This document shows, one piece after another, positions 4,170 through 64,000 of a stretch of 64,000 nt of DNA (within the stretch, counting starts at the first letter, position 1; each line of letters opens with the position of its first letter). Location: IMG/VR virus record IMGVR_UViG_3300029288_000138, positions 19,618-83,617 of that record; one strand, given 5' to 3'. The position numbers and the translations under genes were made by a program. This DNA comes from a virus (lineage: Duplodnaviria > Caudoviricetes). Below the pieces are notes generated by a model. The model was not told the origin of the DNA and made no database searches. It saw only the letters and a list, made by a program, of their open reading frames with translations.

Positions 4170-4242
4170 GCCTCAATGGTCTAATCAGGTAGGGCGGAGG
4201 ATTGCAAATCCTTAGATATAGGTTCAAATCCTTTTTGGGGCT
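4170..4242 (+). tRNA. tRNA-Cys(GCA)
   Basis: Acceptor GCCTCAA/TTGGGGC, anticodon loop TTGCAAA, T-loop TTCAAAT, discriminator U. Confidence 0.9.
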
Positions 4243-9387: not shown

Positions 9388-9756
9388 ATGAAAATCCTAA
9401 AAATTAAGAAAACTTTTGAAACAGCAGAAGAAGTTTATGCTAGTTCCGAATTTCATAAGATTTGGGAGGGTTTTAATGAAAACAAACCATTCATTCGATA
9501 TAAAAACGAGTTTACATTTTATAAAGCTTTTGTAACAGCCGGGCAATATGAGGATGATATTTGGATGTGGTATAAGTGCCTAGATGGTATGGTTTTTCTG
9601 CGAAAAATTTCGGTCTGTTCCTGTTTGGATAACGCAGATTTTCGCTTAGTTTTAATCAATGAAGAAAAAAATGAAATCGTATTGACAGATATGTTCTTCA
9701 AAAAATCCGTAAATCTCTCGAAAAACTTGCCAAAACTTAGAACAACTTTTTGCTAA
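9388..9756 (+). CDS. hypothetical protein
   Basis: Early promoter plus AAGGA RBS. Confidence 0.7.
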   Translation: MKILKIKKTFETAEEVYASSEFHKIWEGFNENKPFIRYKNEFTFYKAFVTAGQYEDDIWMWYKCLDGMVFLRKISVCSCLDNADFRLVLINEEKNEIVLTDMFFKKSVNLSKNLPKLRTTFC

Positions 9757-9761
9757 ACCGA

Positions 9762-11114
9762 ATGAACAACAAAGAACAATCAATCAAAATAATCAAAACT
9801 ATACAATCTAAAGGATTCGAAGCAGTTTGGGCCGGCGGGTGTGTACGAGATACTATTCTAAATCTCGAACCAAATGATTATGATATTGCTACAAATGCTA
9901 CTCCTAATGATATTGAAAGAATTTTTGATAATTCAAAATTCGACTACAAATTCATTATCAATAAACACTGTAATGGAAATAGATTTGGAGTATCATTAAT
10001 TAAAGGCATAGAAGTAGCAACATTCAGAACAGACGGGAAGTATGAGGACGGCCGCAGACCAGAAGGAGTAGAGTTTTGCGATATGGAACATGATGCAGCC
10101 AGGCGGGATTTTACATGCAATGCGTTATACATGGATCCAGTAGAAAATACCATTTATGATTTTGTCAATGGCATCAATGATATCAATAACAAAAAATTAA
10201 AATTCGTTGGTAAAGCAATTGATAGAATCAATGAAGATTATTTAAGGATGCTAAGATTTGTTAGATTCTTAGCAAAATTTGATTTTGATTATGACTACGA
10301 TGATATTGATACCATACAAAACAATGCTGAAAATATTAAAAAATTATCTGGTGAAGTAATATTAATGGAATTGGTCAAAATGGCCGTTTTATTTCCTGAT
10401 AAATTTGCTAAATGCATTGTGTTAATGAAGATGACAAATTTGTTACAATATATTTTTCCTAGTGTTGATAGGCTTGATACTATTGAACAAGATCCAATCA
10501 ATCATCCAGAGGGAGTGGTTTGGGAGCATACTATTCTAACAGTTTCTAAACTACAAAAAGATATTAAATTAGAAACTAAATTTGCTGCTTTATTTCATGA
10601 TACTGGAAAATATCAAACCAAAGGGTTCAATAAAGAAAAGAACAAAATTACATTTTATGGCCACGAAGATTTTAGTGTAGAAAATACCAAAGAAGAATTA
10701 CTGAATTTAAAAGCATCGAATGATTTTATTGACTCGATTGTATCATTAATATCAAATCATATGAGATTTAGATTGGTCAAAGAAATGAAAAAATCTAAAT
10801 TGATTAAATTTTTTGCATTAGATAATTTCAATGAACTAATGAAATTACATAAAGCAGATTGTTTAGGTAGTGATAATGATTTAGAATACTATAATTTCTG
10901 TACAGAAAAAATCAATGAATTAAAAGATGAAAATTCTAATAGTGTTACTTTACCCAAAAGATTAATTAATGGGGATGATTTAATTTCAATTGGTTATATC
11001 CCCGGAAAAATATTCAAAGATATTCTGGATACTGTATTTGATTTGCAATTGGAAGGCAGTATTAATACAAAAGAAGATGCAATACAATTCATACTTGATA
11101 AATATCATCTATAA
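9762..11114 (+). CDS. cca: CCA-adding tRNA nucleotidyltransferase with HD domain
   Basis: GGCVRD....DYDIAT, EVATFR, DAARRDFTCNA, EDYLRMLR; HD region H.EG.VWEHT...FHDTGK. Confidence 0.92.
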   Translation: MNNKEQSIKIIKTIQSKGFEAVWAGGCVRDTILNLEPNDYDIATNATPNDIERIFDNSKFDYKFIINKHCNGNRFGVSLIKGIEVATFRTDGKYEDGRRPEGVEFCDMEHDAARRDFTCNALYMDPVENTIYDFVNGINDINNKKLKFVGKAIDRINEDYLRMLRFVRFLAKFDFDYDYDDIDTIQNNAENIKKLSGEVILMELVKMAVLFPDKFAKCIVLMKMTNLLQYIFPSVDRLDTIEQDPINHPEGVVWEHTILTVSKLQKDIKLETKFAALFHDTGKYQTKGFNKEKNKITFYGHEDFSVENTKEELLNLKASNDFIDSIVSLISNHMRFRLVKEMKKSKLIKFFALDNFNELMKLHKADCLGSDNDLEYYNFCTEKINELKDENSNSVTLPKRLINGDDLISIGYIPGKIFKDILDTVFDLQLEGSINTKEDAIQFILDKYHL

Positions 11115-11763: not shown

Positions 11764-12258
11764 ATGGAAAAGGTTTTTTCAATCTATGGCGTAAAACTTA
11801 ATAACCAAGATCTGCAGAAATCTGCTGATGCGATCAATGCTATAGAATCACAAAAGAAATTGTATGAAGACGATGCTTATTTCTATTTAATCCAAATGGT
11901 TTATGATTTAAGACATAATCAAAAAACATTGTTTCATCCAGTATATCACAATAGAAATTTATCAACAGATATTGAAATTTACCAAGAGGACGACGATTTA
12001 TATATTGGAGTAGATTTTTCAAAAGTAAAATCTAGAAGTAATATTTATTCTAAAAAATATATTAATCAATATCTGGAAATAATAAAAGGTACATTAACTA
12101 TAATTTTAAATAATTTGTGTTTATTATCAAAATTAAATTGTGATTTTTATACGGGATTATATACGGATAACACAGAAGATTTAATTGAATGTTTAAAGGA
12201 GAATAAAGGAAATGATAACAGTTGGTGGAAAGTATACGAACGCCAAGATAATGATTGA
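11764..12258 (+). CDS. hypothetical protein (ends TGA TGA)
   Basis: Early promoter plus GGGG RBS; 3' end overlaps the rtcB start. Confidence 0.65.
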   Translation: MEKVFSIYGVKLNNQDLQKSADAINAIESQKKLYEDDAYFYLIQMVYDLRHNQKTLFHPVYHNRNLSTDIEIYQEDDDLYIGVDFSKVKSRSNIYSKKYINQYLEIIKGTLTIILNNLCLLSKLNCDFYTGLYTDNTEDLIECLKENKGNDNSWWKVYERQDND

Positions 12259-13531
12259 TGATATAGAACCTCAATGTTATTCTCAAATATTATCATTTGT
12301 TAATCACCCGGCATTTACAAATAATATTGCAATAATGCCAGACACTCATGCTGGCAAAGGCAGTGTAATAGGATTTACTATGCCATTAAATCCATATAGA
12401 ATTATACCTAATGTCGTAGGTGTAGATATTTCATGCGGAATTGTAGGCATGTGCTTCGGATTTGATGCCAATTTTAATCTAGATGACTCTGGTAAATATG
12501 CATTTGACACTAAGATTAGAGAATTAATTCCATTTGGCCAGACTGTTCATACTAAATCAGTTATTCATTTTAAAAATGATTTCCCTTGGAAAGAACTAAA
12601 TCAAAATGCTATTGAATTTATCAAGAACTTTTATAATAAATTTAAAATTAGAATAGAACCGCCAAATTATGATTATGACTGGTTTGAAAACAAATGTAAA
12701 CAAATCGGAGTAAAAGTAAAATATGCTATCGATAGCATAGGAACATTAGGCGGCGGGAATCATTTTATTGAAATTGGTAAATCTGAAAAGACTGGTTACT
12801 GGATAACTATTCATAGTGGTTCTAGAAATTTTGGTGCTAGAATATGTCAATATTGGCAAGGAATTGCTGAGAAGAAAATTAAAAATATAAAAATAAATGA
12901 ATTACAAAAAGAAATACTCGATATAAAAAGTAAGTATTCTGGTATAGATATTAATATAGAAATAAACAAAGCCAAAGAAAGGCTTGGATTAAATGATAAA
13001 GTATCTGGTGATCTATTATTTCTAGAAAACGAAGATGCTATCAGTTATTTAGTTGATATGTTATTTACTCAAATGTATGCGGAAGTAAATAGAAATTATA
13101 TGTCATATATACTTTGCAATATCATAAATTCTAGACCAGTAAAAACAATAAAAACTAATCATAATTTTATAGACTTTGAAGACTTTATTATCAGAAAAGG
13201 TGCTATAAAATCATATATTAATGAGGAAATGATAATTCCATTTAATATGGAAGATGGCATATTAATATGCACTGGTAAATCTAACCCAGAATGGAATTAT
13301 TCTGCTCCTCATGGTGCTGGTAGACTATTTTCTAGAAGTGAAGCAAAAAAGAAATTATCATTAGAAGACGCTAAAACTTCAATGGAGAATAGTGGTATTT
13401 TTACTACTGGTATTCCATTAGATGAAGTCAAAGGTGCTTATAAAGATTCAGATGTTATCAAACAAGCAATTGAACCAACTGCTGTTATAATCGACAAAAT
13501 CAACCCAATTCATAATCTAAAGGCTCTATAA
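12212..13531 (+). CDS. rtcB: RtcB RNA 3'-phosphate ligase
   Basis: MPDTHAGKG..IG, VGVDISCG, GTLGGGNHFIE, IHSGSRNFG, HNF, RKGA, SAPHGAGR, AYKD. Confidence 0.95.
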   Translation: MITVGGKYTNAKIMIDDIEPQCYSQILSFVNHPAFTNNIAIMPDTHAGKGSVIGFTMPLNPYRIIPNVVGVDISCGIVGMCFGFDANFNLDDSGKYAFDTKIRELIPFGQTVHTKSVIHFKNDFPWKELNQNAIEFIKNFYNKFKIRIEPPNYDYDWFENKCKQIGVKVKYAIDSIGTLGGGNHFIEIGKSEKTGYWITIHSGSRNFGARICQYWQGIAEKKIKNIKINELQKEILDIKSKYSGIDINIEINKAKERLGLNDKVSGDLLFLENEDAISYLVDMLFTQMYAEVNRNYMSYILCNIINSRPVKTIKTNHNFIDFEDFIIRKGAIKSYINEEMIIPFNMEDGILICTGKSNPEWNYSAPHGAGRLFSRSEAKKKLSLEDAKTSMENSGIFTTGIPLDEVKGAYKDSDVIKQAIEPTAVIIDKINPIHNLKAL

Positions 13532-23821: not shown

Positions 23822-23927
23822 GGCTACTGTGGCGAAATGGAAACCGCAAGACCTGAACCCGTACCAGTAGAATATCTACTGGTGTATCTAAAGCGGCAAT
23901 GCAGGTTCGAATCCTGTCAGTAGCCCA
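23822..23927 (+). ncRNA. tRNA-like RNA 1 with non-canonical central domain
   Basis: GGCTACTG/CAGTAGCC acceptor, GCG/CGC D-stem, perfect T-arm GCAGG-TTCGAAT-CCTGT; 53-nt centre with hairpin ACCAGTAG/CTACTGGT and no 7-nt anticodon loop. Confidence 0.75.
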
Positions 23928-26709: not shown

Positions 26710-26781
26710 TGGGCAATAGTTTAATGGTAAAATCCCGGTCTCCAAAACCGATAGATGAGAGTTCAAATCTTTCTTGCCCGG
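26710..26781 (+). tRNA. tRNA-Trp(CCA)
   Basis: CGGT-CTCCAAA-ACCG; discriminator G. Confidence 0.9.
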
Positions 26782-26859
26782 CAATAAATTTTTTCTTCTA
26801 GGCGCTATATTTATTTATGGATAAATAAAAAGATATAACTATAACTAGGAGAAAATAAA

Positions 26860-31004: not shown

Positions 31005-31017
31005 ATATTTATATAAT

Positions 31018-31320
31018 AGGTGGGTATCTCAACTGGTAGAGACACGGTCTTTAACTAAGGAGCTTTATATTGGAAACAGTATAAATGAAAGAGAATGATA
31101 TCGGTGAACCCTGTAAAATGGCAATACCGAGGGAATAGATTTTTTAATCTAGCCCGTAGAGAGCAGATAATTCTCAACCTAAGTTATATTTTTGTAATAT
31201 GGTTAAGATGTGCTCCAGACTACAAACAACTTTTAGTTGGTGGTGAAAATCATAGTAGTATGCAAAACCGTATCGGGCCTCCAAAGCCTGGGCATGCGGG
31301 TTCAACTCCTGCCCCACCTG
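31018..31320 (+). tRNA. Intron-containing Trp-type tRNA with UCA anticodon (opal decoder) plus a second CCA anticodon-like arm
   Basis: Acceptor AGGTGGG/CCCACCT-G73; D-arm TCTC/GAGA; exons join as ACGGT-CTT|CAAA-ACCGT; then AT-CGGGC-CTCCAAA-GCCTG-GGCAT; T-arm GCGGG-TTCAACT-CCTGC. Confidence 0.85.
31052..31262 (+). mobile_element. Self-splicing group I intron (211 nt, IC3/tRNA-Leu(UAA)-like, no ORF)
   Basis: P1 CUU paired with GAG guide (U.G at the splice site); P2 TTTATATTG-GAAA-CAGTATAAA; P3 GAGAAT/ATTCTC; P4-P5 TCGGTGAACC..GGCAATACCGA; P6 GGG/CCC; P7 GAGCA/TGCTC; P8 AACC/GGTT; P9 region ACTAC/GTAGT with GAAA loop; terminal G 31262. Confidence 0.9.
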
Positions 31321-31814: not shown

Positions 31815-31985
31815 ATGAAAGATGAAGAAATAATGGCATTGGTTGAACAAGAAGCAAATGAGTTTCGAGTTCAACATGATATGTGTATTCTTATTCCAGA
31901 CCATTTGTTAATAATGGCTATTCTGACTGGGGTAAAAATGGGAATGGATTTGTTTAACAAAGAAATTAAAAAACTCAATGAATAA
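31815..31985 (+). CDS. small hypothetical protein
   Basis: GAGGG RBS; 56 aa. Confidence 0.55.
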   Translation: MKDEEIMALVEQEANEFRVQHDMCILIPDHLLIMAILTGVKMGMDLFNKEIKKLNE

Positions 31986-32799
31986 ATTAGAATATGAAAC
32001 AAATTTAATCAAAGATCTGAATAAAGAATTATTCTCGGAAATAATTCCTAAACATTCGGAGAAATTACAGTTTGATTTACTCAAGCATAGTGCAATTCTA
32101 TCATATCGAGGTTCTTTAACTAACGGCACTTATATACCAGATTCAATTGATGACATTGATATAATTGGTATAATTATTCCCCCAATTGAATATGTCCTTG
32201 GCAATAAACAATTTGGTAGTAGAGATACTATAGAAATAAAAGATGGGAAATGGGATATTGTTTTATATTCAATCAAAAAATTCTTTAATCTATTAGTAAA
32301 AAATAATCCAAACATTGTTAGTGTATTATGGTTACCTGAAAGATTTGATATTCATATAAATGAAATTGGCATTGAAATTATAAAACACAGAGAAGAATTC
32401 ATTAATAAAAACATATACAATTCTTTTCTGGGCTATGCTAATGATCAATTAAATAGGATGACTAAATTTACTTTTGAAGGATACATGGGCGAAAAAAGAA
32501 AGCAACTAGTTAACAAATATGGATTTGATTGTAAGAATGCATCACACCTAATTCGATTACTAAAAATGGCATTAGAAGTAATTGTAACTAAGAAATTTAT
32601 TGTTTATCGAGAAAACGATGCCGATGAACTAGTAGCAATAAAAAGAGGTGATTGGTCAATTGAAAAAGTAAAAAAATATGCTAATGATTTATTTGCTAGT
32701 ATTGAATTACTTCGGGGAAGTACACAATTACCAGATGAAAATTATGACGCTGCAAATAAGTTACTAATAGAATTATCAAAAAAGTTTTATAGGATATAA
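31978..32799 (+). CDS. DNA polymerase beta-superfamily nucleotidyltransferase
   Basis: YRGSLTNGTY.PDS.DDIDIIGI; KNNPNIV; GFDCKNASHLIRLL. Confidence 0.85.
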   Translation: MNKLEYETNLIKDLNKELFSEIIPKHSEKLQFDLLKHSAILSYRGSLTNGTYIPDSIDDIDIIGIIIPPIEYVLGNKQFGSRDTIEIKDGKWDIVLYSIKKFFNLLVKNNPNIVSVLWLPERFDIHINEIGIEIIKHREEFINKNIYNSFLGYANDQLNRMTKFTFEGYMGEKRKQLVNKYGFDCKNASHLIRLLKMALEVIVTKKFIVYRENDADELVAIKRGDWSIEKVKKYANDLFASIELLRGSTQLPDENYDAANKLLIELSKKFYRI

Positions 32800-45461: not shown

Positions 45462-47057
45462 ATGACTGATAAAGAACTCATAAAACAAGAAATAATAAAG
45501 TGCTCATCTGATTACACGTATTGTTTAAAGAAATACGGTAAAATAGTAATACCAGGTAAAAGCAAGGTACCATTTGAACTATGAGATTTTCAGCAAAAAA
45601 CGTTAGATCTATTCCAGGCAAATAAAAATATTATCATATTAAAAGGTAGACAGTTAGGACTATCAACACTAGTTGCTGGATTTATTGCTTGTGAATTGAT
45701 ATTCAAAGAACACTATCAAGCCTTAACTATAGCAACTAAAATGGGAACTGCCATTAATATAATTCGTAAGGTTAAAACATTTATAGGCGGATTTCCACCG
45801 TGAATGAAAACTGCTTTAAATGCCAATCCAATTACAGATAATGCTCAATCAGTTGAATTGTCAAATGGCAGCTTTGCAAAATCAGAAGGAAGATCAGAAG
45901 ATGTTGGTAGATCAGAAGGCTTATCACTATTAGTGTGCGATGAAGCAGCATTCATTAGAAATATGGATGATATATGAGCCGGTGCATCAGAAACATTATC
46001 TACTACAGGTGGCAAAACAATAATTTTGAGCACACCTTGTGGCGTGGGAAATTGATTTCACAAAATGTACACAGATGCAGAAGAAGGAAAAACCGGATTT
46101 TTATTTTTAAAAATTCCTTGATATATGCATCCAGATAGAGATCTTAAATGAAAAGACGAAAGATTAAGAGCATTAAAATATGATATTAGAAAATTTGCTC
46201 AAGAGCACGACTGTTCATTTGAATCCTCTGGTAAAACTATTATACCTGGTACTAAAATAAAAGAGATTTCTGACAAAACTAGAGACCCGTTAGAGGTAAT
46301 AGGTAGTGAAAAAAATATGTGAGTATGAAAATGACCACAAGAAAAACATACATATATTGTATCCGCTGATTCGGCTACTGCGGGTGGAGAAGATTATAGT
46401 GCATTTCATGTACTAGATTTAGAGACGTGTGAGCAAGTAGCAGAATACCAAGGCCATATATCCCCAGCTGATTTCGGAGATATGTTGGTTAGTATTGCAT
46501 CTAGATATAATGAAGCATTATTAGTAATTGAAAATAATTCACTGGGCATAGCCACAATTCAGCCAGCTATAGATAAAGAGTATAAAAACTTATTATGAAC
46601 TTTAAAGGGTGGATTAGAATATATTGATCCAATCAAAAATCCATATATGATGGATAATAGAACTACTACCCCCGGCTTTGCAACTACTAGAAAAACTAGA
46701 CCTCTAATGATACAAAAGTTAGAAGATTATTTGGGTGATGATTCCTTAATTATTCACTCAAAACGATTTGTTAATGAATTATGAACATTTGTATATGAGG
46801 GCGGTAAAGCTCAAGCAATGGGTTCATATCATGATGACTTAATTATGGCAATGTGTATTGCATTATGAACTAGAGATACTGTTTTGAAATTAAAATCAAT
46901 AAATGATTCGTTTGATAAAAGAAGAAATGATTGAATGTTTCAGCAGCAATATAGCAGTTCAGAGGCGTTGTATACAAATACAAAGTTATTTAATGACCCA
47001 TATAAAATTAATACGGGGTGATTTGATGAAGATATTAGATGATTAATAGAAAAATAA
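45462..47057 (+). CDS. terL: Terminase large subunit; 15 in-frame TGA (hand count) read as Trp
   Basis: PFEL*DFQ, ILKGRQLGLST, GRSEGLSLLVCDEAAF, STPCGVGN*FH, nuclease SADSATAGGEDYS, IENNSLG, YHDDLIMA; entirely absent from the code-11 track. Confidence 0.93.
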
Positions 47058-47072
47058 ACATAAGAGGAAATA

Positions 47073-50000
47073 ATGGCAACTGATAACAAATTATTTTTTA
47101 GTAATTTAAAAAAATTATTTAGTACTGGAACTATAGTCAGACAGATTGGTAAAAAACAACTGGTTGTAAAGGATTTAGATTCTAGACAAGCTAATTTATC
47201 AAGAAGACTATATGACAGATATAATAGATTATTCCATTCTCAATATACCACAAAATCATACTTATCAGGCTGGAGACCCGGTCAAACAGTCGATCGAAGA
47301 ATGAGGTACTTTGATTATGAATGTATTGCAGGTAACACTATCATTAGTACTCCGGCTGGTAATTTTACTATAGAAGAACTGTCAAAAATATATCCTGACA
47401 AATATACAAAATTTATCGTTTACTCATATGATACAAAAAATCAAAAAATAGTATTTGGTACAGCCCATTCCGCTAGAAAAACAAAAACAGATATGACATA
47501 TAAAGTAAAACTGTCTAAAAATAAAGAGATAATTGCAACTGCGGATCACCCAATTTTAATGAAAAACGAGGAATATAAAACTATAGGAGAATTAAAAGTA
47601 AATGATGAAGTAATGTCATTCGATAAGAATGTTTATCAATATAAAGTTGTTAGCGTAAAACCACATAAAGTTATTGATGTATATGATATATCAGTAAACG
47701 AATATCATAACTTTGCTACTGATTCTATATTTGTTCATAATTGTATGGATGCTGATCCGTTATGTTCTTCAGTTTTGGATGTTTATGCGGAAGAAGCAGG
47801 TTTGGAGGACGAAAGCGGAGAATTATTAAACATCACTTCTGATAATGAAAATATTACTGAAATATTGCATAATTTATTTTATGATATCATCAATTTAGAA
47901 TTCAATTTCTTTCCATGAGTTAGAAACTTATGTAAATACGGCGATATGTTCTTAGCCTTGGAAATTTCTCCAGAGTATGGTGTAATAAATGTATATCCAT
48001 TTTCTGTATATGAAATAGAAAGAGAAGAAGGAGTCGATGAAAAAAATCCAAATGCAGTCAGATTTATTTTAATGGGAAATAGACAAGAGAGTTTGGAAAA
48101 TTATGAAGTAATACATTTTAGATTATTATCAGATACAATCTTACTTCCGTACGGTCGTTCAATATTAGAACCAGGCAGAAGAATTTGAAAACAATTGCAA
48201 TTGATGGAAGATGCAATGTTAATCTATAGGATAATGAGAGCACCAGAACGAAGAATATTTTATATTAACGTTGGAAATTTGGCAGCTAATGACATAGATA
48301 ATTTTATGCAAAAGGCTATATCTAAAGTAAAGAAAACTCCAGTAATAGATTCAAGTACAGGTGAATTTAATTTACGATATAATGTTATGCCTGTGAAATG
48401 AGATACAAAGATTCCTTTATTAGATGGAAGAAGTATTACTATAAAACAATTATCAGAAGAATATAATAGTGGAAAAGAAAATTGAGTATATTCAATTGAC
48501 AGAGAAAACAATAATAAAATAGTACCAGGAAAAGTAACTTGGTGCGGCTTAACAAGACCAGACGCCAAACTAATACGAGTAACTTTAGATGATGATGGGT
48601 ATGTTGATATGACACCAGACCATCCAGTAATGTTAAGAGATGGCAATTATATTGAAGCACAACAGTTAAAAGTTAATGATTCAATTATGCCATTTTATAC
48701 AAAACTGAGTATAGAGCCGGGCATCAAAAATTATGAAAAAATATACGATCCATCAAATAATGAATATGAATTTACTCATAGAATTGTATCAAGGGAATTA
48801 AATATTGATAATTATAATAATACAAAAAATATAGTTCACCATCAAAATTTTGTTCGTTTGGATAATTCCCCGGGGAATTTAAATTGCAGTATGAATGCAG
48901 CAGACCATATTAGATATCACGTTAATAATGCAAAGGGGCGAAAAAAACCAGAACATTCAAAATGAATGAAAGAAAATTATATTCCTTATATAAGAACGCC
49001 AGAACAATGCGAAAATATATCTAAACGTATGACCGGCAAAAATAATCCTAATTATGGTAAATCAGTATCCGCGTATACAAGATCTAAACTATCAGCATCA
49101 ATTAAAAAAACAAAAAGAAGTGAAACGTTTAAGAAAAAATATAATGAAATATTTACAGCAGAATATAGAAAATTAATAGGTGAAAAAAGTACAATTAACA
49201 ATAAAGAAAGATGGGCAAACGAAAAATTTAGAAATCATATATGTTTCGCAATGAAAGATAAATTCGATGATTACTTATTTAATAAAATGATTCAGTATAT
49301 AACAATTAATCCAGATACAAATTTAGATAATCTTACAACACTAATGAATAGTAATCCAGAATTGTACGGTCATTATATTGAAATAAATATGAATCGTATG
49401 AAGCCAAAACAATTTCAAAAACATGTATTACAAAGAAGCATTAGAAAAAGATTGGGATTAACTTATAGAGAATTTAAGAAAGAAATTCAGAATAATCAGA
49501 TATTAAATCATAAAGTAAAATCTATAGAAAATATAGAAAATTCTGATGCGTATTGTATGACTGTAGACAAATATCATAACTTTGCTACTGATACATATAA
49601 TAGTAATACCAGATCTGGTATATTTGTTAAGAATAGTATTGCGGAAGATTTTTTCTTTCCTGTTCGCGGGGGAGAAGATAATCCAACAAAAGTTGAAACA
49701 CTACCGGGCGGACAGAATACTGGAGACATAGAGGATGTTACGTATCTTCTTAGCAAACTTTTTTCCGCTTTCAAAGTCCCAAAATCATTTCTTCAGTACG
49801 AAAGCGACGTTTCTGCAAAGTCGACACTCGCAATCGAGGACATTCGTTTCTCTCGTTCAGTTGAGAGAGTTCAAAAAATTATCGAAGCTGAATTGACTAA
49901 GATAGCAATTATACATCTATATAGTCAAGGATTCAGAAATGAGGATTTAATCAATTTTGATTTAAAATTAACTAGATCATCTACTCTAAGAGAACAGCAA

Positions 50001-50555
50001 AAACTAGATTTGCTCGATAAAAAAGTATCAATGACAAAATCTTGCAGAGAGTCTGAGAGTCTTAGTATGAAATGAATATATGAGACCGTTTGGGAATTTT
50101 CTGAAGATGAAATAAAAGATATCGAAGATGAAATTATTAATGATAAAAAGACTATGTTTAGAATGGCTCAGATACAGGATGGTGGGAATGACCCAGCAAT
50201 TACAAATAAAGTCGTTGATACTAGTAATACCGCTTCAGATAATAATTCAGCATCTAGTGGTTCTAAAGAAGATACTTCAACTAAAAGTGCTGATAAAGAA
50301 GTAGGATTCGATTGAAATGATGAAAAAGATAGTAATAAAGAAGAAAGAAATAGTAATGTTGGATTTGATAATAAACGAGTAACTGGTTATGCTCCGACCA
50401 TATCTGCTGCATATTTATCCAATATAGCAAAGAAATTTAATATAACAGATAAAAATATTCGTACTAGTAATGGCATGAATTTATTATCTGAAGGGTATGG
50501 AGAAAAATTGATAGATAAAATAGATGGAATACTAGAAAACTCAAAATTATTATAA
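47073..50555 (+). CDS. Portal protein (T4 gp20-like) with two inteins; TGA read as Trp
   Basis: DYE|..|CMDADPLCSSVLDVYAEE; FP*VRNLCKYGD; RRI*KQLQLMEDAMLIYRIMRAPERRIFY; EDFFFPVRGG...ETLPGG; FKVPKSFL; EDIRFSRSVERVQ. Confidence 0.92.
47322..47741 (+). mobile_element. Mini-intein (140 aa, class 1)
   Basis: C1 IAGNT; block B ATADHP; block F VYDISV..YHNF; C-terminal VHN/C. Confidence 0.92.
48390..49634 (+). mobile_element. Atypical intein (415 aa) with HNH/NUMOD-type homing endonuclease
   Basis: Begins PVK*DTKIPLLDG; TPDHP; THRIVS...VHHQNFVRLDNSPGNL; AYCMTV..YHNF; ends FVKN/S; excision restores RYNVM-SIAEDFFFPVRGG. Confidence 0.88.
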
Positions 50556-59929: not shown

Positions 59930-61519
59930 GTGTTAGTAAATGTAGAAAAATTGATGACTCAATATCGTCAATTAAATAGATATGAAGAAGGCAAGAAATT
60001 GGTTTCAAAATGGGAACCGACTGGCCTTCTAGAAGGAATTGATGATGAATTTAAGAAACATGGTATGGCTTTATTGCTTGAAAACCAAGCAAAAAGGTTA
60101 ATTGATGAATCTTCTAAAACATCAACTGCCTCAAGTACAGAAGGTTGGTCAGATGTTGCCCTACCTCTAGTACGTAGAACTTTTGCAAAGATTGTTGCAC
60201 AAGACTTAATGTCAGTACAACCGATGAGTATGCCATCGGGCCTAGTGTTCTGGCTATATTTTGATTATGGTACCAGCAAACCAACCAATTTAGGTATATT
60301 CACTTCTGGTACAAGTGTTTATGGTAATGTATCTTCAAGTGCAGTAACTGGCGAAGACATGGGCCCATTATATGCTTGGGATTATACTTTCACAAAGAAT
60401 TATATTTCAGCATCTACTGTTGTTCCTACCACGTTAACCAGTGCATCTTGGGCGGATTTTAACTATAATGATACTATTTCAGCATCATTATCAGCATATC
60501 CAAAAGAATACAAAAAATTCAAAATTGCGTGGTCTGGCTTAAGTGGTGCAGATAAAGAAGCTGCAAAAGCAATTACTTTAATATCTGGTTCAGTATATAA
60601 TACAATATACAGAAAATATACCACAGCAGACGATACGTATGTATATGTAATTGTGTCTAGTTCAGACGCACACTCTGAAACTATTCCGACCGTTGAATAT
60701 CTGAAACAAACCACTCAGGACAATAGAGGTGATTTTGAATCAGGTCAAACAGGAGTTGGAGCAATTCCTGAAATCAATATTAGAATGGAATCAGAAGCTA
60801 TTACGGCAACAACCAGAAAGTTAAAAGCAATTTGGACACCTGAAATAGCTCAGGACTTGAATGCATATCATAGTGTCGATGCTGAAGCAGAATTAACCAA
60901 TGTATTATCAGAATACATAGCAATGGAAATTGATATGGAATTAATCGATATGCTTTGGCAAGATGCTTTAGTCAAAGACTTCTGGTCTACTAAAGTTGGC
61001 AATTTCTTAGATTCATCAACAGGTGCACCAATCTCAGGAGCCCCAGTATTTTATGGTACTGAAATGGAATGGTATCAAACTTTAATAAAGAAAATTACTA
61101 AAGTGTCGAACGAAATCCATAAAAGAACCTTAAGAGGCGGAGCTAATTGGATAGTTGTTGGAACAACTGTTGCAACCATCCTAGAATCAATGAAACCTGG
61201 CTTTGTTGATGACTCTGCAGATATCGAATCAACCGAATATGCAATGGGTCTACAAAGAATTGGTACGTTGAATAATAGATGGAAAGTCTATAAGAATCCA
61301 TATTTTAGAGACGATGCAATCTTGTTAGGATTTAGAGGAAATAGTTTCTTGGAAACTGGCGCAGTATACGCCCCATATATTCCATTAATTCAAACACCTC
61401 TAGTATATGATCCAGATGACTTTACCCCGCGTAAAGGCATAATGACACGATATAGTAAGAAAATGTTACGTCCTGAATTTTATGGTAAAATTATAGTAAG
61501 AGACTTAAACTTAGTGTAA
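59930..61519 (+). CDS. Major capsid protein (T4 gp23-like)
   Basis: KWEPTGLLEG; LLENQAK; LVSVQPMSMPSGLVF; TRKLKAIWTPEIAQDLNAYH.VDAEAELT; YAPYIPL; PRKGIMTRY; 12 Trp, all TGG. Confidence 0.95.
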   Translation: MLVNVEKLMTQYRQLNRYEEGKKLVSKWEPTGLLEGIDDEFKKHGMALLLENQAKRLIDESSKTSTASSTEGWSDVALPLVRRTFAKIVAQDLMSVQPMSMPSGLVFWLYFDYGTSKPTNLGIFTSGTSVYGNVSSSAVTGEDMGPLYAWDYTFTKNYISASTVVPTTLTSASWADFNYNDTISASLSAYPKEYKKFKIAWSGLSGADKEAAKAITLISGSVYNTIYRKYTTADDTYVYVIVSSSDAHSETIPTVEYLKQTTQDNRGDFESGQTGVGAIPEINIRMESEAITATTRKLKAIWTPEIAQDLNAYHSVDAEAELTNVLSEYIAMEIDMELIDMLWQDALVKDFWSTKVGNFLDSSTGAPISGAPVFYGTEMEWYQTLIKKITKVSNEIHKRTLRGGANWIVVGTTVATILESMKPGFVDDSADIESTEYAMGLQRIGTLNNRWKVYKNPYFRDDAILLGFRGNSFLETGAVYAPYIPLIQTPLVYDPDDFTPRKGIMTRYSKKMLRPEFYGKIIVRDLNLV

Positions 61520-63608: not shown

Positions 63609-63770
63609 CAAAGTTTTCTCTTGTTTTTCATTTAATTTTATATTAAATTATAGAGTTATTTAAAATTAAAGATGATCCAGAAATGAGCAATAAACCAAAA
63701 AATCTAAAAACTGGCAACAACTATAAGCGTCGATTCCATGCTATGGTTAGGCTTTAGAAAGGAAAATGAT

Positions 63771-64000
63771 ATGGCAAAGTGTTTAAGGTGTGGTGCTGGG
63801 AATGAATGGATTCAAGGCAAAGTAAGAAACGAGACAGATTCAGACAACAGCCCAAAGCGTCAGGTGGACGCAAGGGGTAACCATTTAAAAGACCTTATCG
63901 GCGCTCTTGACCAATATATAATTAATCCTTATATTATTCTTGAGATGAACGGAAAAACACAAAAAGGAGATGAGAAAATGAATGAGTACAAAGTGACTAT
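63771..64000 (+). CDS. hypothetical protein, truncated by window end
   Basis: GAAAGGA RBS; MAKCLRCGAGNEWIQG...; open to the end. Confidence 0.5.
   Translation, partial: MAKCLRCGAGNEWIQGKVRNETDSDNSPKRQVDARGNHLKDLIGALDQYIINPYIILEMNGKTQKGDEKMNEYKVT
63841..63880. repeat. Dispersed hairpin element, copy 2
   Basis: CAGACAAC-AGCCC-AAA-GCGTC-aggtg-GACGC-AA-GGGGT. Confidence 0.65.

Follow-up and report, generated by a model that had tools for sequence, protein, structure and literature searches.

It was already known that the anticodon loops of tRNA genes can harbor group I introns, that recoded phages can carry suppressor tRNAs, and that the tRNA genes of Lak megaphages contain introns that lack an explanation. 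In Williams 2020 (bioRxiv 10.1101/2020.01.27.920355), which lists 21 bacterial settings, the IC3 intron of tRNA-Leu(UAA) is designated "Leu.3Ug" and written CUU/a...g/AAAA. Uninterrupted suppressor tRNAs have been found in recoded phages with tRNAscan-SE (Borges et al., bioRxiv 10.1101/2021.08.26.457843; Yutin et al. 2021, PMC7886860), and some recoded phages have no detectable suppressor (Yutin et al. 2021, PMC7886860). The Lak megaphage introns, detected in tRNA-Tyr and tRNA-Thr genes by a search with eukaryote settings, were termed "enigmatic" and received no group I assignment (Devoto et al. 2019, PMC6784885). One screen for phage suppressors put tRNAs longer than 100 nt aside as low confidence. 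Leaving aside whether UCA is among Williams's settings, the literature searched gave no phage suppressor tRNA described as carrying a group I intron. The statement in the original prediction that such a gene had not been described holds for that literature, but the structure itself is common in public phage contigs (29 in IMG/VR). Here, we analyze a phage locus that is likely a tRNA-Trp-derived opal (UGA) suppressor gene, split between nt 34 and 35 by an IC3-type, ORF-less intron that descends from a mobile element and is tolerated by the gene rather than serving as a timing device.

The locus belongs to an 83.6-kb IMG/VR virus record with 29% G+C and a completeness, estimated for the whole record, of ~42%. 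The window, the 64,000-nucleotide stretch analyzed here, comprises bases 19618 to 83617 of this record. Its genes include those for a T4-type terminase, the portal, and the major head protein, and 22 ordinary tRNA genes are arrayed at 4.2 kb and 24.4 to 31.7 kb (ARAGORN, default settings). When TGA was read as sense (code 4 instead of code 11), the longest ORF grew from 685 to 2149 amino acids. Within the large terminase gene, 8 of the 15 in-frame TGA codons fall on columns that hold Trp in 32/33 or 33/33 homologues, and 1 more falls on a column with Trp in 29/33; the remainder lie mostly on aromatic columns. Since the terminase TGA codons align with Trp columns, TGA means Trp in this phage, and the genome does contain, as originally claimed, TGA codons that need a reader. 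Across 90 ORFs, we counted 141 TGA and 161 TGG codons. Their distribution is patchy, with TGA/TGG counts of 15/0 for the terminase, 7/4 for the portal, 23/10 for a 2146-aa ORF, and 0/12 for the major head protein, and TGA is absent from most small ORFs near the tRNA array.

Several other features of the window were observed. The terminase gene writes all 15 of its Trp codons as TGA and the major head protein gene (59930 to 61519) writes all 12 as TGG; the two codings are mixed gene by gene, virion genes included. The portal gene (47073 to 50555; 1160 amino acids in code 4) contains an intein with HNH/NUMOD3 endonuclease motifs. Genes for RNA repair and tRNA maturation encode an RNA ligase (1839 to 2936), a CCA-adding enzyme (9750 to 11114), an RtcB ligase (12212 to 13531), and an RlaP-type nucleotidyltransferase (31978 to 32799), a set that hints at competition with tRNA nucleases of the host. 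An encoded CCA is absent from most of the tRNA genes in the window. A 103-nt tRNA-like gene at 23823 to 23925 (35.7 bits with the Rfam tRNA model) has good acceptor, D, and T arms around a foreign center of 38 nt that includes an 8-bp hairpin; ARAGORN reports a Phe(GAA) gene with a 14-nt intron here, a call that we do not find convincing, and no ordinary tRNA-Phe was found in the tRNA array.

The exons of the split gene and the features discussed below are listed in Table 1.

Table 1. Features of the split tRNA gene and of related loci (window coordinates)
Feature	Position	Strand	Details
TATTTATA motif, possible promoter-type signal	31006..31013	+	4 nt before tRNA 5' end
5' exon, tRNA nt 1-34	31018..31051	+	Acceptor AGGTGGG, D arm, anticodon stem ACGGT, C32 U33 U34
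Group I intron, IC3-like, 211 nt, ORF-less, terminal G31262	31052..31262	+	Alignment, covariation, U(-1)/terminal-G test
Internal guide GGAG	31059..31062	+	G60-A61-G62 pair with U51-U50-C49 as P1
Catalytic core	31087..31220	+	P3 31091-96/31170-75; P4 31101-06/31125-30; P5; P6/P6a 31131-55; P7 31161-65/31211-15; P8 31176-31204; J8/7 AAGAUG
P9 domain	31219..31259	+	Stem ACUAC/GUAGU around hairpins 31227-39 and 31240-53 (GAAA loop on the latter)
3' exon, tRNA nt 35-73	31263..31320	+	C35 A36 A37 A38, stem ACCGT, long variable arm, T arm, acceptor CCCACCT
Variable-arm hairpin CGGGC/GCCUG, loop CUCCAAA	31274..31290	+	Within 24-nt variable region
tRNA-Trp(CCA)	26710..26782	+	Unpaired C27·A43 (4-bp anticodon stem), U11-A24; possible near-cognate UGA reader
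tRNA nucleotidyltransferase (CCA-adding enzyme), phage-encoded	9750..11114	+	phrog_2244, E = 8e-70
Large terminase	45462..47057	+	Pfam Terminase_6N; 15 in-frame TGA, 0 TGG

The letters and coordinates first reported for the inner exon ends (ACGGT-CTT up to 31051 and CAAA-ACCGT from 31263) proved correct. When the exons were ligated in silico, ARAGORN folded the spliced sequence into a clean UCA cloverleaf, a regular 92-nt tRNA with a long variable arm, a 7-bp acceptor stem, a 4-bp D stem, a 5-bp anticodon stem, a T arm, and a G (G31320) as the discriminator base; the CCA end is not encoded in the 3' exon. The ligated loop on the 5-bp stem reads CUUCAAA with the anticodon UCA, as had been claimed, and the "SeC" label that ARAGORN gives the product reflects the anticodon only. 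A further claim, that this arm is one base from that of the tRNA-Trp gene at 26710, was only partly borne out: the inner 15 nt differ at position 34 only, but the closing pair differs as well (A27-U43 versus C27·A43).

Under the rule that Williams also uses, which asks for U immediately upstream of the 5' splice site and G at the final intron position, 31051/31263 is the sole conforming junction within ±5 nt, and it yields the anticodon UCA. Since the exon is split after nt 34 at this predicted junction, the UCA anticodon would be present only after splicing, in agreement with the original prediction. In addition, uninterrupted phage tRNA genes carry exactly ACGGTCTTCAAAACCGT as their anticodon arm. 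These intronless relatives have a long variable arm in L021, L022, L024, and the L007 group and a short one in L010, L016, L019, and L023. Because they show ACGGTCTTCAAAACCGT as a contiguous loop in tRNAs of the same type, some of which also have the long arm, they support the junction.

Standard tRNA finders miss the gene because the intron splits it. Neither default ARAGORN nor the Rfam tRNA model made a call at 31018 to 31320, and when introns were allowed, ARAGORN found the 211-nt intron but placed it one base early, miscalling the gene as Cys(GCA); both kinds of failure had been anticipated. With introns allowed, ARAGORN detected no second UCA tRNA in the 83.6-kb record, and within that record no other UCA tRNA accounts for read-through, as the prediction required. 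Since the record is ~42% complete, a further UCA tRNA may exist elsewhere in the genome.

To collect homologues of the intron, a degenerate pattern for the P4-P5-P4' strands was used, which retrieved >120 IMG/VR contigs; 29 homologous introns were aligned with that of the window using MAFFT. The P1-P9 pairings were drawn by hand on the window intron and then projected onto this alignment, which keeps collinearity all the way from P1 through the terminal G and has 41 invariant columns, all of them kept by the window intron. Across the 29 homologues, 86.9% of cells were paired in the P1-P9 fold, versus 34 to 38% when the 3' partners were slid by 1 to 3 columns, and 43 of the 65 pairs change on both sides. 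No shuffle (0/500) matched the real fold in any of five measures. The paired fraction was 100% for P4, 99.3% for P7, and 99.1% for P8, while P9 (97.7%) and P9b (100%) also showed changes on both sides; P3 changed on both sides in 6/6 pairs, yet it was paired in 61.9% of cells in the MAFFT alignment.

An independent covariance model of the P3-P8 core, R1, was built from 24 phage introns of the Leu, Met, Asn, and Ser types, with the window intron and all UCA-type introns excluded. R1 matched the window at full length over 31087 to 31220 (83.9 bits, E = 3.2e-18), and there was no other credible match in the 64 kb; a weak match at 63697 to 63845 (12 bits, E = 0.58) is probably noise. Because two of its members, L093 and L115, pass the Rfam Intron_gpI cut-off (62.6 and 58.5 bits), the training set is tied to the curated Rfam family. 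That family's own model (RF00028) found no intron in the window at its gathering threshold: against a cut-off of 50 bits, the window intron scored 12.7 bits (E = 2.4, reporting at E ≤ 10), this match was lost on a short stretch, and a separate genome search gave none at E ≤ 10. The Infernal comparison thus failed with the Rfam model but succeeded with the family model (E = 3e-18). The low Rfam score is probably due to compensated departures in P7, which is GAGCA/UGCUC in the window and GACUA/UAGUC in the family, and in P6, which is GGG/CCC rather than CC/GG. Covariation and the independent covariance model strongly support the original proposal of a complete 211-nt group I fold from P1 to P9 with a terminal G, and indicate that this fold is real. 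The intron has a P3-P8 core with a covarying P3/P7 pseudoknot, a U·G in P1, and a G as its last base, and we infer that it splices.

P1 itself is only 3 to 4 bp long. The U31051·G31060 wobble lies at the 5' splice site, and the homologous column is U·G in 21 of 28 aligned introns; the register, exon C49-U50-U51 with guide G62-A61-G60, is common to the Leu introns. A stronger local helix than P1 exists (U48-U52 with A57-A61); with it, the wobble would fall one base further upstream, after U31050. We rejected this register given its 6-nt loop and given that it is not the homologous one. We likewise rejected ACUAC/GUAGU as P7, since the family comparison identifies this helix as P9. Next to the guide triplet, G31059 can pair with C31263 (C35) in P10, so the guide does have a G opposite C35, as predicted.

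The contigs retrieved with the P4-P5 pattern contained ~46 split tRNA genes, mostly Leu(UAA) genes of the form CUU/...G/AAAA, plus Met, Asn, and Ser genes. Consistent with the statement that tRNA-Leu(UAA) introns also insert after U34, the phage Leu(UAA) copies align over their full length with the window intron. In IMG/VR, >120 viral contigs (L050 to L173) have an IC3 P4-P5 core, with four cores in L112 alone, and phage tRNA group I introns are far commoner than the literature examined suggests.

A second IMG/VR search, with a pattern spanning the intron end and the 3' exon, identified 29 contigs, mostly of 100 to 175 kb and from at least 12 samples, that carry the same split gene. All 29 read GGTCTT/intron/CAAAACCGT. 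Intron length ranges from 183 to 707 nt, and 19 distinct sequences are represented. Two phage contigs with the split UCA tRNA also carry a tmRNA gene (L107, 7986 to 8409 on the minus strand, 73.7 bits; L176, 4160 to 4600 on the plus strand, 61.9 bits). The base 5' of the guide GAG is G in 7/7 introns of the Trp(UCA) clade, in which the 3' exon starts with C, and U in 26/27 Leu(UAA) introns, in which it starts with A. Through P10, this match between guide and 3' exon lends additional weight to the predicted junction. In the core tree, the window intron groups with five other Trp(UCA) introns (support of 0.995; core identity to L176 and L107 of 80%), and three other Trp(UCA) introns are placed elsewhere. 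We leave the order of events undrawn because this tree comprises 127 columns and is midpoint-rooted. We read the pattern as that of a mobile lineage that appears to have moved from, or to share ancestry with, the Leu(UAA) site, with the guide adapted to a change of one loop position.

The split gene also has close counterparts that lack the intron. The exons of L192 (183-nt intron) and L024 (no intron) are 95% identical, and those of L176 and L107 are 92 to 93% identical to the intronless L021. At the intronless loci L007, L011, and L024, ORFs are longer with TGA as sense, a modest signal given that these are short stretches near tRNA arrays. At the other extreme, the long introns of L107 and L188 encode a PF11645 PD-(D/E)XK endonuclease in the P1 loop. 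Gain or loss of the intron was seen only in other lineages of the UCA tRNA family and not in the window phage's own. A blastn search with the 303-nt gene gave no match among GenBank phages, exact 31-mer and 26-mer queries from the 3' exon gave none in IMG/VR or the JGI metagenomes, and no close sister of the window phage was found by these searches. Related loci were also sought through the neighboring 273-aa ORF, which gave none, and through the capsid protein, which gave 5 contigs, with the tRNA in 0/5. The pattern ACGGTCTT-N(185-215)-GCAAAACCGT gave 25 matches, all of which were rejected as chance occurrences in coding DNA.

These observations suggest the following course for the precursor. 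It would fold P1 from the exon CUU and the guide GAG, with U34·G as the wobble; guanosine would attack after U31051, the terminal G31262 would dock, and the exons would be joined with the help of the C35-G31059 pair in P10. The product would be the 92-nt tRNA with the loop CUUCAAA, to which CCA would be added. The phage encodes a CCA-adding enzyme of its own that could supply the end missing from the spliced tRNA. Charged with Trp, the tRNA would then read the 141 in-frame TGA codons counted in the phage.

Outside the anticodon, the spliced tRNA carries G73 and the pairs A1-U72, G2-C71, and G3-C70, as in E. coli tRNA-Trp, and is Trp-like by its discriminator and first three acceptor pairs. In bacteria, Trp identity involves G73 and the first 3 bp, A-U, G-C, and G-C (PMC2965240, citing Himeno 1991). 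The spliced tRNA would thus be expected, from its sequence, to be charged with Trp; its long variable arm and G73 could attract SerRS as well.

The variable region of this tRNA contains an additional hairpin, the loop of which, CUCCAAA, is a copy of the Trp CCA anticodon loop. This extra arm is shared by intron-bearing and intronless genes, 13 distinct phage tRNA(UCA) genes in all (examples are the window gene, L021, L024, L107, and L174 to L192). In these genes, UCCA is invariant and the stems covary (CGGGC/GCCUG, GGGU/ACCC, GGAG/CUCC, CGGGG/CCCCG, GUAGGG/CCCUAC, CUGG/CCAG, CCGC/GCGG, and others). In E. coli, the identity of tRNA-Trp depends chiefly on CCA and G73 (PMC2965240). Since UCCA is invariant and since CCA and G73 are identity elements, it is reasonable to suppose that the CCA-loop copy keeps recognition by TrpRS. 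We tentatively raise the possibility that the extra arm is no relic but a working copy of the CCA loop, recognized by the host TrpRS or another anticodon-reading factor, while holding this to be rather doubtful. If true, one arm (UCA) would serve decoding and the other (CCA) identity, which would be a new way of changing the anticodon while the amino acid identity stays, in a gene that depends on a ribozyme. In the literature searched, no Trp tRNA was described as having such an arm. As a hypothesis for how a suppressor retains Trp identity, the conserved CCA-loop arm of these UCA tRNAs is open to testing and could be of use in engineered UGA decoding.

The original prediction went further, proposing that the intron gates the code switch and makes it sensitive to Mg2+/GTP, folding time, or phage proteins. 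On this view, the intron would be kept because the speed of self-splicing determines when UGA can be read and, with it, when late genes are translated. Several observations are in keeping with such a switch: the anticodon arises only through splicing, UCA tRNAs of diverged phages have retained an intron lineage of their own, and TGA codons are distributed unevenly with respect to a putative promoter. The motif TTG(T/C)TT-N17-TAAATT has 16 copies on the plus strand of the record, all intergenic, and likely represents an early promoter class. The ORF that follows lacks TGA in 13/16 cases, and the terminase, portal, and 2146-aa ORF are TGA rich. (Examples of the motif lie at window positions 127, 1619, 3771, 9325, 23094, 27686, and 31757.)

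Nevertheless, we consider a ribozyme-gated switch unlikely. Near-identical tRNA genes exist without the intron, several of them on contigs that also have longer ORFs with TGA as sense; the same intron family occupies ordinary phage Leu, Met, Asn, and Ser tRNA genes; and tRNA introns of the IC3 type splice in seconds to minutes in vitro. Because sister introns carry homing endonucleases, persistence of the intron is explained without a benefit to the phage. The tRNA-Trp(CCA) encoded at 26710, with its 4-bp stem, is a second possible UGA reader and could leak UGA reading regardless of splicing. Timing could also be set by transcription instead of splicing, since the TATTTATA motif lies just upstream of the gene. 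Of its 21 plus-strand copies, 12 fall within the intergenic 10% of the record, and it precedes several TGA-rich ORFs; in several places it is too near the start codon for a simple promoter. A scan for generic sigma-70 promoters and terminators around the gene yielded nothing above chance. A timed switch would be striking if true and is unsupported in this analysis. We infer instead that the intron is the descendant of a mobile element that the gene tolerates; splicing would be obligatory for function but probably not rate-setting. A secondary regulatory effect would be compatible with this passenger role.

It is also possible to regard the split gene as auxiliary or decaying, with UGA read mainly by the tRNA-Trp(CCA) at 26710 or by a UCA tRNA encoded beyond the recovered portion of the genome. 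The G24A change is that of the classical Hirsh UGA suppressor, and the U11-A24 pair of this tRNA-Trp(CCA) is of the Hirsh type. tRNAs that share its 4-bp anticodon stem read UGA in E. coli (PMC13092985). A second, weaker UGA-reading route through this tRNA is thus plausible, and the 42% completeness of the record leaves room for another UCA tRNA. That such a reader has displaced the split gene nevertheless seems improbable: neither the core nor the exons show decay, with the family-invariant positions and all helices intact; 141 TGA codons, including all 15 terminase Trp codons, argue for an efficient cognate reader; and the same split gene is kept in 29 other phage contigs.

A different product is very improbable and was rejected on the intron-end rule, stem lengths, and intronless relatives: a tRNA-Cys(GCA) spliced at 31050/31262, which is what ARAGORN calls with introns allowed, would end the intron in U rather than G and would duplicate a normal tRNA-Cys already present at 4170; a tRNA-Trp(CCA) that uses the CCA hairpin as its genuine anticodon arm, with the UCA arm and intron as an insertion, looks normal once the UCA arm is removed (5-nt variable loop), but the short-variable-loop intronless relatives L010, L016, L019, and L023 have the UCA arm as their sole anticodon arm; and a tRNA-Sec is hinted at by a weak Rfam match (RF01852) but conflicts with acceptor/T stems of 7/5 rather than 8/5 or 9/4, the match being 22.5 bits against a cut-off of 47 and in a different register that uses intron bases as the acceptor stem.

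With the split UGA suppressor as the preferred reading, the locus can be set beside the known systems. It shares the UCA anticodon and long variable arm with tRNA-Sec, in contrast to which it has 7/5 stems and a Trp-type acceptor, and its TGA codons align with Trp rather than with Sec or Cys. The 4-bp-stem tRNAs that read UGA in E. coli address the same problem, the reading of UGA as Trp, and the phage tRNA-Trp(CCA) at 26710 shares their short stem, whereas the split gene would supply a cognate UCA tRNA whose anticodon stem has the usual 5 bp. As in Lak, introns occur in phage tRNA genes of alternative-code phages and are present or absent between close relatives; unlike those of Lak, the intron here has a demonstrable group I fold and lies in the suppressor itself. 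Like the suppressors of Borges and Yutin, the gene would provide a phage tRNA that reads a reassigned stop concentrated in structural and late genes. In contrast to them, it is split by an intron and would look like one of Yutin's cases without a suppressor. An anticodon intron hides such a gene from ARAGORN, tRNAscan-type models, and Rfam, and reports of recoded phages often include no suppressor tRNA to match; because the intron hides these genes, surveys of code change would undercount suppressors.

The intron itself has two close parallels. The group I intron of the Synechocystis tRNA-fMet gene carries a PD-(D/E)XK homing endonuclease, I-Ssp6803I, an enzyme type also found in the P1 loop of the sister introns L107 and L188, whereas the window intron has no ORF. 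With the cyanobacterial and plastid tRNA-Leu(UAA) IC3 intron, it shares the insertion point, the guide GAG paired with CUU, and the P1-P9 core. It differs in that its host gene is a phage Trp-type UCA suppressor, in that the guide base 5' of GAG is G (matching C35) instead of U, and in that P7 is GAGCA/UGCUC rather than GACUA/UAGUC and P6 is inverted. A mobile intron lineage of the tRNA-Leu type thus seems to have been retargeted by one base, from CUU/AAAA to CUU/CAAA, with its guide changed to match.
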